The notes beneath the pieces are model-generated. The model ran no database searches, was not told the DNA's origin, and worked only from the letters and a program-made list of their open reading frames with translations. Shown piece after piece: positions 2,633 through 8,943 of a stretch of 8,943 nucleotides of DNA (the stretch's first letter is position 1; every line of letters begins with the position of its first letter). This DNA is from a virus (taxonomy: Duplodnaviria; Heunggongvirae; Uroviricota; Caudoviricetes): positions 1-8,943 of IMG/VR virus record IMGVR_UViG_2563366853_000003. One strand, 5' to 3'. The position numbers and the translations under genes were made by a program.

Positions 2633-3502
<870 letters not shown>

Positions 3503-3597
3503 CTAATCCTTTGAATTTACATAGTAAAAAAAGATACTTTTCCTCATAGTGTGAGCTAATTTTATGTTTCGTTTGATGATCGGACCGGTCTCAAAAA

Positions 3598-3675
3598 CCG
3601 CAGGCACGTTGTATGCAAGAACGTGCTGTGGCTGGCTGGTGAACTTCCAATAGTGCGAATATTGAATGATGTCCA
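3598..3675. repeat. repeat copy B (34-bp core plus about 45-bp extension shared with copy C)
   Basis: Core CCGCAGGCACGTTGTATGCAAGAACGTGCTGTGG. The extension GCTGGCTGGTGAACTTCCAATAGTGCGAATATTGAATGATGTCCA aligns without gaps to 6301-6345 with about 7 mismatches. Confidence 0.5.
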
Positions 3676-3794
3676 GCCGTTACCGTTTTTACGTGTTTAT
3701 TAGTGAACAAACCACTCGTCAGCAGACTCCTAGGTATGAACAAAAGTTTTAGCTGAAACTCTATCTGTGGTGCGCGTAACAGAAGTGTAATAAA

Positions 3795-4096: not shown

Positions 4097-4630
4097 TTAT
4101 CTTTTTGCATTTTTTCTCATCCAAGTTTCAGCCGCTTGTTGACTGACACCAAATGTTTTGCTTATATCTTCAACAGTCATTGTGGGCAAAACTAGTCTTG
4201 AGTCAATTAAGAAGTGGCTTGCAAAAACATCTGCTTGCCATTCGCTGTCTTCATAGATTTTATGCCCTCCACTAGTCTTATTACGTGCATAGATACTTTG
4301 ATTGCGATGCATGACTAAATGACCAAGTTCATGCGCAACAGTGAATCTCGCATGGTTCTCACCATTGCACACTGCATCGTAAACAGATCGCTGTAAAACA
4401 ATTTTGTTCTTATCTGGATAAGTCACTGCATAGCGTTTGGGCAGTTCATGATCTTCAACAATTTCTAGCTCAATGCTTTCTGAGGCCATAAGACCTTCTA
4501 GTAATACATCCAGTCTCAGATATGTGTGATTTGATATCTGAAGAACGTCTCTCAGACGATGAGCGTATGATTTAATCATGCTGGTGCTGAGAGGTGAAAC
4601 GCGATGGCCAAGTTCTCGTTTCGCAATCAT
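4097..4630 (-). CDS. ImmA/IrrE-family Zn-metallopeptidase (HEXXH; COG2856-like)
   Basis: 177 aa with the HEXXH motif (HELGHLVMH) and downstream ...SEWQADVFASHFL.... Its ATG sits 3 nt after the stop of the upstream XRE gene, so the two are likely cotranscribed. Confidence 0.8.
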   Translation of the reverse strand: MIAKRELGHRVSPLSTSMIKSYAHRLRDVLQISNHTYLRLDVLLEGLMASESIELEIVEDHELPKRYAVTYPDKNKIVLQRSVYDAVCNGENHARFTVAHELGHLVMHRNQSIYARNKTSGGHKIYEDSEWQADVFASHFLIDSRLVLPTMTVEDISKTFGVSQQAAETWMRKNAKR

Positions 4631-4633
4631 TAT

Positions 4634-4984
4634 TCAGTCCTTTAACATTTTATTAAGCTTATCGAGTTGCTCTGGACTCAGGTCCTTAAATTTACGAGCA
4701 AAAACAAGCATTAGTTCTTTGTTCTGCTCATTTGCATCCGACATATCAACCTTAATGGACGGTTGAGAAATCTCTGCCTGTTTCTTGAGATTGATGATGT
4801 CTTGTCCGCTAAGCTCAAAAGTTGTTGCAATCGTATTTACTAATGAGTCCGGTATAGCTCTTTTGCCTAATTCAATGGCGGATAAGTAAGCCGAACTAAC
4901 GCCTAACAGATCAGCCATATTTTTGAGCACCATACCCCGGTCTATTCTCATTTTTCTGAGAGTCTTACCAAAGCTAGTTACCAT
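4634..4984 (-). CDS. XRE-family helix-turn-helix transcriptional regulator
   Basis: Start ATG at 4984 preceded by a perfect SD AGGAGG with a 6-nt spacer. HTH_XRE signature LRKMRIDRGMVLKNMADLLGVSSAYLSAIELGKR. The ORF-track start at 5011 is a GTG upstream of the SD. Confidence 0.8.
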   Translation of the reverse strand: MVTSFGKTLRKMRIDRGMVLKNMADLLGVSSAYLSAIELGKRAIPDSLVNTIATTFELSGQDIINLKKQAEISQPSIKVDMSDANEQNKELMLVFARKFKDLSPEQLDKLNKMLKD

Positions 4985-5010
4985 GTTGCGCCTCCTACAA
5001 TCCATGCTCA

Positions 5011-5039
5011 CTTATACTAAAAACCAAACTCAAGATCAA
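5011..5039 (-). promoter_or_regulatory. putative sigma70 promoter for the XRE/ImmA operon (-35 TTGATC, 17-bp spacer, -10 TATAAG)
   Basis: Hexamers read on the - strand, placed about 20-30 nt upstream of the XRE SD. Confidence 0.4.
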
Positions 5040-5317: not shown

Positions 5318-6079
5318 GTGCAAAAGAATTTGTTACAATTATGCTACGAAGGAGAGTGTGGAGAAAATTATATCCGTAGCATGAATGAAAAAGGGCAGAT
5401 TTTTGTTTCACTTTCAGATGTGCTAAGAACGCTTTCTGCTGAGAACAGAAAACTGGATGGAAAGACTTCTCAAAGCTTGCTCACTGTAATAAGAGCGGTA
5501 ATAAAAACTTTAGATCCAGATGAGTTTAGGAATGTTTCTCTTGTCGTGGATGGTGAAACTATCTCTGAGGTATTTCTTACTGAACCAGGTCTATATAGAG
5601 TACTTGCTCAGGATACTACTGCTGCGGGGAAAAAATTCCAACGCTGGCTTTTTCATCAGGTCCTTCCGTCTATTCGTGAATTTGGTGTATATCCTCCGCC
5701 ACCTAAGCAAGAACGTTCAGAACTGAGTGCTTTTGCTAACAGTCTGCAGCAGACGGTTCAAGCATTGGTAATGGAAATAGAAAAACGTGAAGAGTTAGAA
5801 AGTAGAGTAAACCAAGTTGAACTAAAAGTTAACTCGTTAGAAAGTTTAAGAGATTTGTCTCAGTTCAGAAGTGTTCCTCAACGATTGATGGAGTTAGGTT
5901 TGGATACCTATTCGGTTGAGGAGCTTTGGCAATGGTGTGAAAAATTGCGTAGTGAACGTGGAGCAGAAAGAATTAAGTGCCCCTCCGGATTGAATATAAA
6001 TTCTTGCTATCCATTAGCTTTGGTTGATGAAGCTATCGCTATATACCAGAAAGTAGTTGAGGCAAGAACACGTCAGTGA
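5318..6079 (+). CDS. Bro-N domain protein (phage antirepressor-like) with a predicted coiled-coil C-terminal region
   Basis: GTG start 7 nt after SD AGGAGG. The N-terminal half (...IFVSLSDVLRTL...GLYRVLAQDTTAAGKKFQRWLFHQVLPSIREFGVY) matches the Bro-N signature; the C-terminal half is heptad-like (EIEKREELESRVNQVELKVNSLESL). Confidence 0.75.
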   Translation: MQKNLLQLCYEGECGENYIRSMNEKGQIFVSLSDVLRTLSAENRKLDGKTSQSLLTVIRAVIKTLDPDEFRNVSLVVDGETISEVFLTEPGLYRVLAQDTTAAGKKFQRWLFHQVLPSIREFGVYPPPPKQERSELSAFANSLQQTVQALVMEIEKREELESRVNQVELKVNSLESLRDLSQFRSVPQRLMELGLDTYSVEELWQWCEKLRSERGAERIKCPSGLNINSCYPLALVDEAIAIYQKVVEARTRQ

Positions 6080-6088
6080 GCTTGAGGG

Positions 6089-6118
6089 AAAAAAAAGCCC
6101 GCATAAGCGGGCTTTTTT
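6089..6118 (+). terminator. strong Rho-independent terminator (bidirectional shape)
   Basis: AAAAAAAA-GCCCGC-ATAA-GCGGGC-TTTTTT, starting 10 bp after the Bro-N stop. Confidence 0.8.
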
Positions 6119-6243
6119 ATCACTCGGGAGCTGCGGCTCCTTTGCGTATCCTTTTTTGTCTCCTCACCGTCTGGTCGGTGTCCTGCTGAGACTGCTAACA
6201 TCCTGTTTTTGTTGGTGTTGTCCTTACACCGTCCAATCATGAT

Positions 6244-6271
6244 TGGTGGAGCTGGCGGGAGTTGAACCCGC
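6244..6271 (-). other. ssrA (tmRNA) 3'-end fragment, att-site-like scar
   Basis: Reverse complement reads GCGGGTTCAACTCCCGCCAGCTCCACCA (T-arm, acceptor 3' strand, CCA), which I recall as the terminal 28 nt of enterobacterial tmRNA. No upstream tmRNA body is present. Confidence 0.55.
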
Positions 6272-6345
6272 TGACACGTCGTATGCAAGAACTTGCTGCG
6301 GCTGGATGGTGGACTTTCGATAGTGCGAGTATTGAATGATTTCCA
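6268..6345. repeat. repeat copy C (34-bp core plus about 45-bp extension), directly abutting the ssrA fragment
   Basis: Core CCGCTGACACGTCGTATGCAAGAACTTGCTGCGG, then GCTGGATGGTGGACTTTCGATAGTGCGAGTATTGAATGATTTCCA. Overlaps the ssrA fragment by 4 nt. Confidence 0.5.
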
Positions 6346-6764
6346 TCTATTATAGATTTTACCGTATTTCGGCATGAATGAAACTGAATATCCTCCCACC
6401 GACCCTCCATGACTTTACACCACTGTCTCTGGGGCTGCTATGTGCCAAAAGCGGACATAACGACACGTTAGTTAGAAATCTCAAGACCAATTAGGTTGGA
6501 TACTTACATGTATACTATTGCCTAACGATACTACCCTATCAACCTCATGGTTTATAGGCGGGGGTGAGAGCCAATCGAACGCTATCGTACGTTTTTATGC
6601 TGTCTACCCTAGACCCCAAGTAGACATGAATCTTACCTGATTTCCATACGAGGGCGACGTTGATCATCCAGCTTTAGTGCGAGCACTGAACTTAACATTT
6701 ACCAGCAATAGTGATATTTTCTACAAAGAAAAATATATGGAATAACGTCATCGCGGGTACAAAA

Positions 6765-7757
6765 ATGACTATAAAAAAAACATATGTAACACCAACAGAA
6801 ATAGTGAAATATTTTTATGACAAACCGGAAAACGATAACGTAAAAGAGAGAAAAACAATTGAGAGCCTGACCCGTCTCAAACCTGAGTGGGAAAATACTC
6901 TCGATATGATGAAGTTAATACGCAATTGTGAAAAGCTAGCAACTGAAGGTATTTTAATGGAATTGTCTTCAGGACATACTCTTTTTGACCGTTGCTATTT
7001 CGCACCGAATTTCAATGAATCAGATGCGAAATATGGAAAGTATGATTTTATAGCTGATGGATTTGAGTCAATCATAGACCGCCTTAGTCCTTCCGTTTTA
7101 CCTGTTGTTGTTGAAAAAAGTGATGGTTCACATGATCTTGGTACTAGTTTTATTGTTGGGAATAACCACACGATATTTACAGCCAGACATGTTATTGAAG
7201 ACATGAAGAGTATCAGGATACTTAGAGCTGGTGGTGAGGCTTTACCAATACATAAAATCTTTGTATCTAACGATGAACGTATTGATATCGCTTTAGTTTT
7301 CACAACCATTCCGAATGAAGATAATATTCAACCACTTAAGGTCTCAACCAAAGCCTCGGTACTGGATGAAATTTTATCAATAGGATTTCCACCCATTCCA
7401 GGATTTGATGCATTAAAGTTATATGACGTTTCGCATATAAATTCGTTTGTCCGACTGTCAAAGGGGCGAATTGTTGGTTCTGGTCACTCTTACTTAGATT
7501 CACAAGACTTTTTATTATTCAATGCTAGGGTTAAGGGGGGGAATAGCGGTGGCCCTATAATTAACAAATACGGCCTTGTTGTTGGTATGCTTGTACAAAT
7601 ACCAATATCATCTGAGGACAGTTCAAAGATTGATAACCTTGGATATGGTATAGCTGTAACAGGAAAAAGCCTGCTGGATGCCATTACATTTACAGAAAAT
7701 GGCCGCGAATTAACACTCACCGACCGAGGAAATGGAGAATATTCAACTCTAGCATAA
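6765..7757 (+). CDS. trypsin-like (chymotrypsin-fold) serine protease with N-terminal domain of unknown function; no signal peptide
   Basis: Catalytic triad in order: His in FTARHVIED, Asp in DIALV, Ser in GGNSGGPI. The first ~115 aa have no recognisable motif and no hydrophobic leader. Start is uncertain: ATG 6765 chosen, GTG 6711 is the alternative; both have a weak SD. Confidence 0.7.
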   Translation: MTIKKTYVTPTEIVKYFYDKPENDNVKERKTIESLTRLKPEWENTLDMMKLIRNCEKLATEGILMELSSGHTLFDRCYFAPNFNESDAKYGKYDFIADGFESIIDRLSPSVLPVVVEKSDGSHDLGTSFIVGNNHTIFTARHVIEDMKSIRILRAGGEALPIHKIFVSNDERIDIALVFTTIPNEDNIQPLKVSTKASVLDEILSIGFPPIPGFDALKLYDVSHINSFVRLSKGRIVGSGHSYLDSQDFLLFNARVKGGNSGGPIINKYGLVVGMLVQIPISSEDSSKIDNLGYGIAVTGKSLLDAITFTENGRELTLTDRGNGEYSTLA

Positions 7758-8404
7758 ATGATATTATTAATTAAGTTGTACTAACTCAGTTTAAATGAAT
7801 CAAGCATCCCCGTAACTTTGCCTGAAAAGGCTCATCGAGGGATGCACATTGTACGGATGTGTGAAAACTAAATCGGCTTTGTCACTTGGATTCGAGGGGA
7901 AAACTGAACTGAAAGCGATAAAAACGTCTAAAAAATCGTTTCGCAGACAGATGCACCCGATTCAAGCCATTTTGAGGAAGACTTTCTGCCTTTTATATTT
8001 ATATTAATCATAAGGTTATTCCATTGGTGTACGATATCGTGCTTTGCCCCTCATCTCCCAGATAACTAATTAGCCTTAAAATTACTCATGTGTTTCTGCC
8101 GGTTAAAATTATATGGTTTTCATTTACAATAGTCTCAAGTCCGCTCTTCGCTCATAACAGACATTCACTACAGTTATGGTAGAAGATATGCATGCTGGGT
8201 GGGGAAAGTATGAAGGAAAAGAAGGCTGCTGTGTCGTTTGACATCACTGCAATCTTCTTATTGGTTATGCGGGTCGTAGTGGGACAAAACTGAGACACAT
8301 AAGGCCTAGCAATGGCTTGCAAGGCTTTACATGTTTTGATGTGGTGGGACTTGTGAGCGCAGTGTTGATAGGGTAATGCTTTGAATTAGAAGCGGATTCT
8401 TATA

Positions 8405-8450
8405 ATTCGTAATGCGAAGGTCGTAGGTTCGACTCCTATTATCGGCACCA
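8405..8450 (+). other. tRNA-Thr 3' fragment (anticodon loop to CCA), att-site-like direct-repeat remnant
   Basis: ATTCGTAATGCGAAGGTCGTAGGTTCGACTCCTATTATCGGCACCA has a T-arm and acceptor 3' strand plus CCA, with anticodon CGT in the loop. The preceding sequence does not form the 5' half of a tRNA. The match to a tRNA-Thr (thrW-like) is from memory. Confidence 0.65.
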
Positions 8451-8604
8451 TTCTAACGTCTCCCCAAGTCTACTCAAGTATTTAAAAACCTCTTATAATC
8501 AGTATATTAATGCCCCTTTTAGTCTTTTGACGTCTATTTAAGTACCCCAAACTCTACAAGCAATTGAGGGGATTTGCTGTTCAGTTTAGTGGAGATACCC
8601 CCAA

Positions 8605-8943
8605 GTGAAACTCAATGCCCGTCAAATAGACACTGCCAAGCCAAAAGAGAAGGCTTACAAGTTGGCTGATGGTGGTGGTCTGTACCTCCTGGTAAAACCT
8701 GGTGGAGGAGAATATTGGCGTCTCAAGTATCGTGTAGCTGGTAAAGAGAAGCTGTTAGCACTAGGTGTGTATCCTGAGGTCACCTTAGCTGATGCTCCTG
8801 CAAAACTTGAAGAAGCTAAAAGAGGTATCTCTGGGGGAATCGATCTGATGGAAGTGAAGCGAGAGGAAAAGATTGCCCGGGAAACGCAGTTAAACAACAC
8901 CTTCAAAGATATTGCCCTTGAGTGGCACAGTAACAAATTATAA
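8605..8943 (+). CDS. P4-type tyrosine integrase, N-terminal arm-binding domain only (112 aa; likely truncated or pseudogene)
   Basis: MKLNARQIDTAKPKEKAYKLADGGGLYLLVKPGGGEYWRLKYRVAGKEKLLALGVYPEVTLADA... is the characteristic N-terminus of P4-like integrases. In-frame TAA at 8941-8943 cuts the protein before the catalytic domain. The gene lies immediately downstream of the tRNA fragment. Confidence 0.75.
   Translation: MKLNARQIDTAKPKEKAYKLADGGGLYLLVKPGGGEYWRLKYRVAGKEKLLALGVYPEVTLADAPAKLEEAKRGISGGIDLMEVKREEKIARETQLNNTFKDIALEWHSNKL

Follow-up and report, generated by a model that had tools for sequence, protein, structure and literature searches.

The stretch of DNA analysed here (8,943 nucleotides in full; hereafter, the window) raises a specific question: how did the 3′ ends of two integration target genes—ssrA and thrW—come to lie in opposite orientations, without their gene bodies, next to a truncated P4-type integrase gene? 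A first-pass annotation had taken this layout for a tandem or nested island junction. All three features proved real: the 28 nt of ssrA and the 46 nt of thrW are exact matches (with ~8e-11 and 1e-22 matches expected by chance for the 28-mer and the 46-mer, respectively), and the integrase is reduced to its arm domain. A check for intact tRNA or tmRNA genes overlapping the window coordinates returned none, ARAGORN finding zero complete genes of either kind in the whole window. On the strength of sequence comparisons, we consider it very likely that the window is the right end of an SfV-like E. coli prophage residing in thrW, beside an older, decayed vat islet, and that the ssrA scrap is a fossil attP core (Table 1). 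The tandem interpretation holds for the thrW fragment and the integrase stub, which mark the SfV-like prophage and the decayed vat islet standing one after the other at thrW, and fails for the ssrA fragment. The arrangement is ordinary phage mosaicism, and it leaves the current understanding of site-specific integration unchanged.

Table 1. Features along the right-hand part of the window, with the basis of each assignment
Feature	Position	Strand	Basis
P′ arm of ssrA-type attachment site	6089..6243	-	Homologous to DNA immediately downstream of ssrA
Putative fossil core of ssrA-type attP, 28 nt	6244..6271	-	Identity to tmRNA gene 3′ end
Repeat R and adjoining sequence, third copy in the window	6265..6460	.	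Conserved lambdoid b-region boundary sequence
S1/trypsin-like serine peptidase cargo gene, 330 aa	6765..7757	+	Annotation as S1 family peptidase; Pfam Trypsin_2, E 1.5e-17
P-side arm of SfV/P22-type attP, now phage side of attR	8280..8404	+	Similarity to phage attP regions
attR core: 46-nt thrW 3′ end plus 2 nt	8405..8452	+	Perfect 48-nt direct repeat with attL
Original thrW-downstream DNA, left edge of vat islet	8453..8604	+	Contiguous with intact thrW in prophage-free strains
Truncated P4-type tyrosine integrase gene, 112 codons	8605..8943	+	Arm-binding domain only; pseudogene

The thrW fragment, the prophage and the empty site

The 46 nt at 8405-8450 (+) correspond exactly to thrW positions 31-76 and are the published att core of SfI/SfII/SfV/SfX/P22 (PMC3636060). 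The fragment had been described as a target remnant deprived of its gene body; that body is present 41.5 kb upstream, where an intact thrW (L002 7270-7345) at attL contains the partner of the perfect 48-nt repeat and is followed by an integrase with 98% identity to SfV Int. Arm and core together (8280-8452) display 94-96% identity to the attP regions of SfII, SfIV, SfV and SfI, and ~83% to those of P22-like phages. Moreover, an attP rebuilt from the left arm of attR and the right arm of attL was 96.9% identical to the SfV attP over 326 nt and 98% identical to that of phi458. The 48-nt repeat shared with the intact thrW, together with the adjoining SfV-type Int, identifies the thrW fragment as the attR of what, judging by its sequence, is apparently a whole SfV-like prophage. 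This 41.5-kb temperate element—with an HK97-type head and a Mu-like contractile tail—would have used site-specific recombination to enter thrW at its 3′ end. Integration would have rebuilt thrW at attL from the phage-borne copy of its last 46 nt, displacing the chromosomal original of these 46 nt by 41.5 kb downstream to form the attR at 8405-8452.

The prophage possesses both att sites, an intact SfV-type Int, a Xis-like gene and complete gene sets for head, tail and lysis; its capsid gene is intact in FDAARGOS_1284 and annotated as frameshifted in A32 only. The earlier suggestion that the left element is probably immobile finds no support in this inventory. Completeness of this kind suggests a probably active prophage, whose exact right boundary the thrW fragment would fix.

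A prophage-free counterpart of the locus was found in ATCC 11775, the E. coli type strain, where the order runs proA, thrW, the same stub, MarR, vat, IS1 and yagU. The sequence of this strain is 100% identical across the thrW-stub junction and over a further 106 nt past the stop, and it falls in A32 into two pieces overlapping by 52 nt. A synthetic query consisting of thrW and its downstream DNA was recovered in one piece over 675 nt, with 100% identity in ATCC 11775 and MS1679 and 99.9% in A4. The comparison with relatives that the first-pass annotation had recommended therefore yields an intact thrW followed by the stub, with no prophage, in ATCC 11775 and MS1679. These alignments establish the att sites as well as the empty site, which the ATCC 11775 arrangement evidently represents; the DNA now to the right of attR would once have lain directly downstream of thrW.

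The integrase ORF (8605-8943) begins with a GTG start, encodes 112 aa and ends with a TAA at the final base of the window. Arm-DNA-bind_3 (PF13356, E 9.3e-24, residues 3-88) is its only domain; the loss of the C-terminal catalytic domain was correctly noted at the outset, and the central core-binding domain is missing as well, the intact homologue having PF22022 and PF00589 at residues 100-371. An intact integrase of 404 aa adjoins thrW in ISHS7, and the stub matches its residues 1-112 with 92% identity. Homology to the ISHS7 gene at the DNA level stops at 8943, codon 112, and the stop codon of the stub was evidently created at the deletion junction. The same stop is present in the three complete genomes that carry the window sequence and also in prophage-free genomes with the stub, e.g., ATCC 11775 and MS1679. 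Past the window the reading frame does not continue, and no further integrase-coding sequence was detected in any frame over the 9 kb following the stub—which rules out that the gene resumes in a different frame or beyond an inserted element. As a separate observation, CP66-6 has a different thrW-adjacent integrase gene, split by an IS3.

Besides the truncated P4-type integrase, the vat islet contains a MarR-type regulator, vat itself and the remnants of an IS1 and of an integrase; no second thrW repeat closing it was found within 20 kb downstream. It would be the older and degenerate of the two elements, its integrase having already been cut to the arm-binding domain by deletion, and the prophage now separates thrW from this toxin islet. 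The stub and the thrW-proximal flank occur in hundreds of complete genomes (867 cover at least 80% of the thrW-stub query, a count in which truncated and intact alleles are mixed), and the stub is widespread among vat-carrying E. coli.

The ssrA fragment and its arm

The 28 nt at 6244-6271 (-) match the 3′ end of E. coli K-12 ssrA exactly (28/28 nt; ...GCGGGTTCAACTCCCGCCAGCTCCACCA), and the Rfam tmRNA model recognized positions 347-363 alone at this fragment, scoring 16 bits against a gathering score of 47. The core is accompanied by neither a gene body, a cognate integrase nor a P arm. Together with its P′ arm (6078-6271), it has 94.9% identity to the arm that follows the intact ssrA in the prophage of GPEC1035 (the attL arm of that element). 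The portion at 6170-6271 shows 100% identity over 102 nt to the ssrA-adjacent arm of CFT073, ~90% to the native sequence bordering CP4-57 on its right in K-12 and ~75% to phage LLS. The K-12 ssrA-intA flank, also considered as a match for the arm, gave none, that flank being CP4-57 itself; the native K-12 flank lies at the other CP4-57 end, before ypjA. The arm takes in the terminator of the tmRNA gene, a strong, bidirectional hairpin (~6091-6119) that, read on the + strand, terminates BRO-N as well. Direct folding shows it clearly (-20.6 and -21.2 kcal/mol, z about -6), although a consensus terminator scan left it unflagged. Additionally, a permissive Rfam scan returned Leu, Trp and Thr leaders, STnc350, isrB and PrrB/RsmZ at 6012-6230; we rejected all of these candidates, which score below the gathering score and stem from the single terminator hairpin.

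Alignment established that a sister of the A32 prophage occupies the real ssrA in GPEC1035, and it also established the exact homology breakpoints. The two prophages are 97-98% identical, with ~28 kb of aligned blocks spanning most of the prophage, and the homology breaks off exactly with the last nucleotide of the 28-nt piece, at 6271; in GPEC1035, a core of 27 nt is common to both att sites (attL and attR) of the prophage. The ssrA 3′ end has an identical 29-bp counterpart in phage LLS (PMC12315714). It lies within an annotated 39-nt tmRNA pseudogene beside the annotated attP, in the order BRO-N homologue, ssrA-identical 29 bp, gp31, int and xis. Homology to the ssrA-type sister ending at 6271, combined with an integrase that is solely of the SfV type and located at the far end, indicates that the ssrA piece is a fossil attP core with its arm and not a functional attP.

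No ssrA integration of the kind first proposed took place at this locus: the 28 nt and the ~150 nt to their left have their counterparts in the attP core and P′ arm of the ssrA-integrating sister phages, LLS and the GPEC1035 prophage. The piece is phage-borne and lies inside the prophage, never having been part of the ssrA of the host chromosome, and core and ~150-nt arm would have been inherited from near-identical phages integrating into ssrA. In the lineage of the window, the ssrA P arm, integrase and excisionase would have been replaced by a block that carries R (the b-region sequence of lambda), the S1 peptidase as cargo and an SfV-type attP, int and xis—leaving the old half-site behind. 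The direction and the mechanism of this module exchange are what we infer; core and R may have recombined through their AA(A/C)CCGC overlap, by homology or microhomology, or the event may have been mediated by Int at a secondary site. The locus is bordered by proA on its left and yagU on its right, both of them native neighbours of thrW, and therefore no ssrA-region DNA was imported by rearrangement. A large inversion between prophages in ssrA and thrW is ruled out by the same native flanks. The ssrA fragment is carried by the phage itself, with a lesson for annotation: a tDNA 3′ fragment need not be a chromosomal scar.

The core-R joint, its cargo and alternative readings

Three copies of R are found in the window, starting at 2574, 3595 and 6265, the third overlapping the last 7 nt of the ssrA core, with 6/7 bases in common (AACCCGC vs AAACCGC). 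This third copy (6265..6460) is 95% identical to phi458, where it comes straight after the invertase gene without any ssrA piece, and 6268-6461 is ~80% identical to lambda 24162-24354, between ea47 and ea31. In prophages located at dusA, at prfC and beside fumD, the P′-core-R joint recurs with 81-89% identity and a decayed core, which implies that the joint is old. At least 80% of 6170-6470 was covered in 165 of 5426 complete genomes, and no record in the phage collection was a free phage with the whole joint (at least 80% covered). The perfect 28/28 core of the window could stem not from the original exchange but from an ssrA-type phage that supplied the left arm anew at a later time. For exchanges of integration modules between closely related E. 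coli phages, the fossil joint offers a marker that is clean and can be dated.

The joint is located in a slot rich in defence-type cargo. The peptidase gene is the sole convincing gene between the ssrA and thrW fragments; its protease domain resembles those of the defence proteins RT-Protease_XI and LmuA, and its position next to attP is the one occupied by the gtr genes in SfV. The interval between tail fibre and attP also holds a Pin invertase, a PD-T4-3 homologue, a CapH/CapP-like pair and the BRO-N gene, besides the fossil ssrA half-site.

Could the ssrA core and its P′ arm still be a usable half-site, recombined with ssrA-type att sites by an ssrA-type Int/Xis acting in trans from a co-resident sister prophage or an infecting phage such as LLS? 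The core is perfect where other lineages have decayed ones, and the P′ arm has 95-100% identity to arms that are actively used beside ssrA. The breakpoint lies at most 1 nt from the core/P-arm boundary of the sister phage—as expected of an Int-made joint—and core and R agree in 6/7 bases of their overlap. However, the prophage has neither an ssrA-type integrase nor a P arm, core decay in prophages at dusA, prfC and thrW (CP66-6) speaks against selection, and a recent homologous exchange of the left arm explains the perfect core equally well. We consider this scenario improbable; if it held, prophage-into-prophage integration, hybrid phages and a switched integration site would be expected. A similarly small chance attaches to the broader proposal that the fossil half-site is maintained as a landing or recombination site in an E. 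coli prophage family at thrW, dusA, prfC and other loci, through which a sister phage, its ssrA-type integrase acting in trans, could integrate into a resident prophage or swap modules with it. If true, the half-site would be an inbuilt means of changing integration specificity and of trading the neighbouring defence cargo.

Two further readings are highly improbable. Under the first, successive integrations at an ssrA-type site and at thrW were followed by decay, such that both fragments are chromosomal scars and the segment from tail fibre to protease is an immobile remnant. The two oppositely oriented tDNA 3′ fragments without gene bodies in the window, the adjoining truncated integrase and the capsid gene frameshifted in one strain would be in keeping with such a history. 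It conflicts, however, with the intact body of thrW at attL and its perfect 48-nt repeat, with the proA and yagU flanks and the lack of any ssrA-region DNA brought in, and with the intact capsid gene of FDAARGOS_1284. Moreover, the ssrA piece and the left arm are collinear with the sister prophage and LLS up to the core, and 6272-8404 lacks an integrase, a repeat or any other hallmark that would delimit it as an element of its own. The second reading makes 6272-8404, with its S1 peptidase, a small independent integrative element or satellite inserted in a phage-borne ssrA-like site, and although the segment does move as a unit (96-98% identity with a different left neighbour in CP66-6, Ec1119 and others), it encodes no integrase or replication function, lacks flanking direct repeats, ends on the right in the SfV-type attP arm itself, behaves as a cargo slot in phi458 (where another cargo gene stands between R and the attP arm and the ssrA piece is absent), and was seen neither as a circular form nor as a copy at unrelated loci with target duplications.

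Comparison with known systems

The reading that we favour, an SfV-like prophage in thrW carrying a fossil ssrA half-site, has close parallels among the Shigella flexneri serotype-converting phages SfV, SfI, SfII, SfIV and SfX and in P22, which use thrW with a 46-nt att core identical to that of the window. The attP arms of the Sf phages are 95-97% identical to those of the window prophage, and SfV shares with it, besides the 98% identical Int, the order tail fibre, cargo, attP, int, xis, yfdR, yfdQ and yfdP. Both the SfV-group phages and the window prophage are inserted between proA-thrW and the downstream DNA. The cargo beside attP differs, being an S1 peptidase in the window and the gtrABC O-antigen modification genes in SfV. 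In addition, SfV lacks the Pin invertase, the PD-T4-3 homologue, the CapH/CapP-like pair, BRO-N and the ssrA half-site, all of which the window has. Escherichia phage LLS (PQ299149) and the GPEC1035 prophage are of the same phage type as the window prophage, with the order invertase, cargo, BRO-N (in LLS), P′ arm and ssrA-identical core. Past the core, they keep the P arm, a gp31-like gene and an ssrA-specific int and xis, and they sit in ssrA, whereas the window prophage has lost these components and uses thrW.

The VAT pathogenicity island is reported to adjoin thrW (Parreira and Gyles 2003, as cited in PMC7545054). This island and the thrW islands of ExPEC resemble the locus of the window in having vat and its MarR-type neighbour downstream of thrW, a P4-type integrase at the head, and IS1 and yagU thereafter. 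Compared with the VAT island, however, the islet is short (~7.8 kb from thrW to yagU in the prophage-free strain), its integrase has been reduced to 112 codons, and a prophage stands between islet and thrW. In the tandem islands of the Islander database (PMC4383910), the newest element has a regenerated target and a displaced 3′ fragment at its ends, with older elements pushed distally—as in the window. GPEC1035 has the same tandem arrangement at ssrA, with a prophage followed by a P4-like satellite. The window departs from the Islander cases in that the fragment of its second target, ssrA, lies inside the newest element and not at a boundary. Finally, the b region of lambda and the R territory of the window are both non-essential, given over to cargo, and situated between the tail fibre genes and attP; in contrast to lambda, the window has the R sequence three times, as boundaries of cargo cassettes, with one copy abutting the ssrA core.

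Prophage integration at thrW

The E. coli chromosomes A22, A32 and FDAARGOS_1284 are 100% identical to window positions 5800-8943, and A32 matches the entire window save for an inverted tail-fibre segment, which lies in the opposite orientation in the window. Because the window matches these chromosomes, we took the genomic context from A32 (loci L001 and L002) and FDAARGOS_1284 (locus L016). The ssrA fragment, the thrW fragment and the truncated integrase were all present as the first-pass annotation had described them, with a chance expectation of about 1e-10 or less for each of the two fragment matches. No complete tRNA or tmRNA gene was detected in the window by ARAGORN, and the match to the Rfam tmRNA model was limited to the last 17 model positions.

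Features of the window, with strand where assigned
Feature	Position (strand)	Description
Pin-invertible tail-fibre segment	75-1958	20-nt inverted repeats at 75-94 and 1939-1958
pin invertase gene	1984-2574	adjoins the invertible segment
R repeat, three copies	2574-2610, 3595-3692, 6265-6362	37-98 nt, 82-89% identical; cargo-cassette boundaries
LEM-3-like GIY-YIG gene	2633-3457 (-)	
ImmA/IrrE and HTH pair with BRO-N gene	4097-5011 (-) and 5318-6079 (+)	divergent transcription
P' arm	6089-6243	DNA left of the ssrA core
ssrA fragment (core)	6244-6271 (-)	28 nt, exact copy of ssrA 3' end
S1/trypsin-like peptidase gene	6765-7757	N-terminal ~110 aa uncharacterised
thrW fragment	8405-8450 (+)	46 nt, exact copy of thrW positions 31-76
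Integrase stub	8605-8943 (+)	112-aa ORF, stop at the window's last base

In A32, proB and proA are followed by an intact thrW and an opposite-strand tyrosine integrase, from which a prophage runs on to the S1 peptidase gene and the thrW fragment. The integrase is followed by an excisionase-like HTH gene, early genes of the yfdR/Q/P type, and genes for a LexA-like repressor, a Cro-type HTH protein and antitermination. Beyond these come the lysis genes, then terminase, portal and the HK97-type protease and capsid, then sheath, tube and baseplate genes and the tail fibres together with the Pin invertase—and, last, the GIY-YIG gene, the ImmA/HTH pair, the BRO-N gene and the S1 peptidase gene. The integrase shares 98% identity with SfV Int, and the phage-side attR and attL arms, once joined, give an attP with 96.9% identity to SfV attP over 326 nt. 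Moreover, the att core published for SfI, SfII, SfV, SfX and P22 equals the 46 nt of the thrW fragment, letter for letter (PMC3636060). A perfect 48-nt direct repeat, common to the intact thrW and the fragment at a spacing of 41.5 kb, sets aside the earlier reading of the fragment as a scar without a gene body. Judged from these alignments, the thrW fragment represents the attR of a whole prophage, a predicted live site rather than a decayed scar. Nor did we find a sign that the left element is immobile, as had been proposed, except for a frameshift annotated in the A32 major capsid gene (L001 1457-2648); either a sequencing error or an inactivation peculiar to that strain could account for it, and the gene is intact in FDAARGOS_1284 (L016 1488-2693).

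The pre-existing vat islet and its truncated integrase

We assembled a synthetic empty-site query by joining the 5' portion of thrW to window positions 8405-8943 and the 106 nt that follow in A32. This unoccupied site was found unbroken at 100% identity in ATCC 11775 (the E. coli type strain) and MS1679, and at 99.9% in A4, thereby providing the comparison with related strains that the first-pass annotation had suggested. ATCC 11775 has proA and then thrW, followed by the same integrase stub, a MarR-type regulator gene and vat, then remnants of IS1 and of an integrase, and finally yagU. Its sequence falls into two blocks in A32, with a 52-nt overlap around the core; the unbroken site and this two-block split therefore indicate precise prophage insertion into thrW. 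The vat islet was already in place at that time. Extraintestinal pathogenic E. coli are already known to carry a vat island beside thrW (PMC7545054). We found no second thrW repeat bounding the islet within 20 kb downstream; the islet is a decayed, immobile island.

The loss of the integrase catalytic domain was borne out: Arm-DNA-bind_3 is the sole domain of the stub. In ISHS7, an intact 404-aa homologue with arm, central and catalytic domains adjoins thrW and heads a P4-like satellite; the stub product shares 92% identity with residues 1-112 of this protein, and DNA homology stops at window position 8943. Beyond AAATTA, the intact gene reads AAAAAATGG, whereas the window and A32 read TAATCACAAT—a divergence indicating that the stop codon was made at a deletion junction. 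A check for continuation in another frame, as the first-pass annotation had suggested, showed no further integrase-like sequence in any frame over the next 9 kb. Since strains without the prophage carry the same truncated allele, the truncation is older than the prophage insertion.

A fossil ssrA half-site in phage DNA

Four lines of evidence—phage LLS, the GPEC1035 prophage, the left arm and the chromosomal flanks—agree in pointing to the ssrA fragment as phage DNA. LLS (PQ299149) carries, in order, a BRO-N homologue, an annotated tmRNA pseudogene with attP, a hypothetical gene, int and xis; its authors describe a 29-bp stretch that matches the ssrA 3' end exactly and infer ssrA integration (PMC12315714). 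The window shares ~75% identity with LLS from the BRO-N gene to position 6271, and none beyond. The GPEC1035 prophage, which occupies the real ssrA beside smpB, encodes many proteins identical to those of the A32 prophage, with 97-98% DNA identity in ~28 kb of aligned blocks spanning most of the prophage; this homology stops exactly at the final base of the 28-nt ssrA piece. Its other end has a 27-nt core and an integrase of the ssrA type, with a P4-like satellite beyond them. The left arm, which contains a strong bidirectional terminator, shows 94.9% identity (window 6078-6271) to the arm after ssrA in GPEC1035, 100% over 102 nt (6170-6271) to the ssrA-adjacent arm in CFT073, and ~90% to the native ssrA flank kept at the far end of K-12 CP4-57. 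Finally, the locus is bordered on both sides by native neighbours of thrW, which rules out the import of ssrA-region DNA by rearrangement. With fragment and left arm phage-borne, the claimed integration at ssrA in this locus falls away; of the suggested tandem or nested arrangement, the tandem junction at thrW stands.

To the right of the core lies R, a repeat that begins AA(A/C)CCGC; the ssrA match runs 7 nt into it. In phi458, a thrW-type phage, R directly follows the invertase gene without an ssrA piece, and the lambda b region (24162-24354, between ea47 and ea31) has ~80% identity to R. The repeat seems to mark a boundary at which recombination recurs in the cargo regions of lambdoid phages. 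The P' arm-core-R joint is not confined to one strain: among 5426 complete E. coli genomes, 165 span 80% or more of window 6170-6470. Examples reside in prophages at dusA (30EVA1), prfC (AH02), beside fumD (LR-17-1) and at thrW (CP66-6); all four cores bear substitutions, and all except LR-17-1 small deletions too. This spread with decayed cores in other prophages implies an old, generally unselected fossil, and the window's perfect core most likely reflects a recent left-arm exchange with an ssrA-type phage. One block would have been swapped for another in the window lineage, with the ssrA P arm, a gp31-like gene, int and xis lost, and the S1 peptidase cargo and SfV-type attP, int and xis gained; a second breakpoint lies near a 363-nt early gene beside yfdR. 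The original joint may have arisen through microhomology recombination, through Int-mediated recombination at a secondary site, or with R as the former P arm of an ssrA-type attP.

Cargo, satellites and known systems

The LEM-3-like GIY-YIG protein, of which an identical copy occurs in the ssrA-integrated GPEC1035 prophage, gives a near full-length match to the PADLOC PD-T4-3 model (E 2.7e-140). The ImmA/IrrE metallopeptidase and HTH protein show similarity (E 5e-15 and 6e-11) to the CapP/CapH pair that regulates defence systems, and may together switch the BRO-N gene in response to damage; all three genes recur in LLS. The protease domain of the S1 peptidase resembles those of the RT-Protease_XI and LmuA defence proteins, and its gene accompanies the SfV-type attP arm across many E. 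coli genomes, in some strains with ~1.8 kb of extra genes inserted after it. P4-like satellites (psu, ogr/delta, Icd-like, primase) lie directly distal to the prophage attR at ssrA in GPEC1035 (L012 34600-45100) and at thrW in CP66-6 (L005 16200-22300); in CP66-6, IS3 interrupts the satellite integrase gene, and a reverse transcriptase gene comes next.

SfV has the same overall layout as this prophage, but carries gtrABV in the slot between tail-fibre genes and attP, where other cargo resides here. The tandem array at ssrA in GPEC1035 mirrors that of the window at thrW. The arrangement as a whole is what tDNA-targeting phages and islands are well known to produce; only the wide spread of a fossil ssrA half-site in prophages that use other sites is mildly new.
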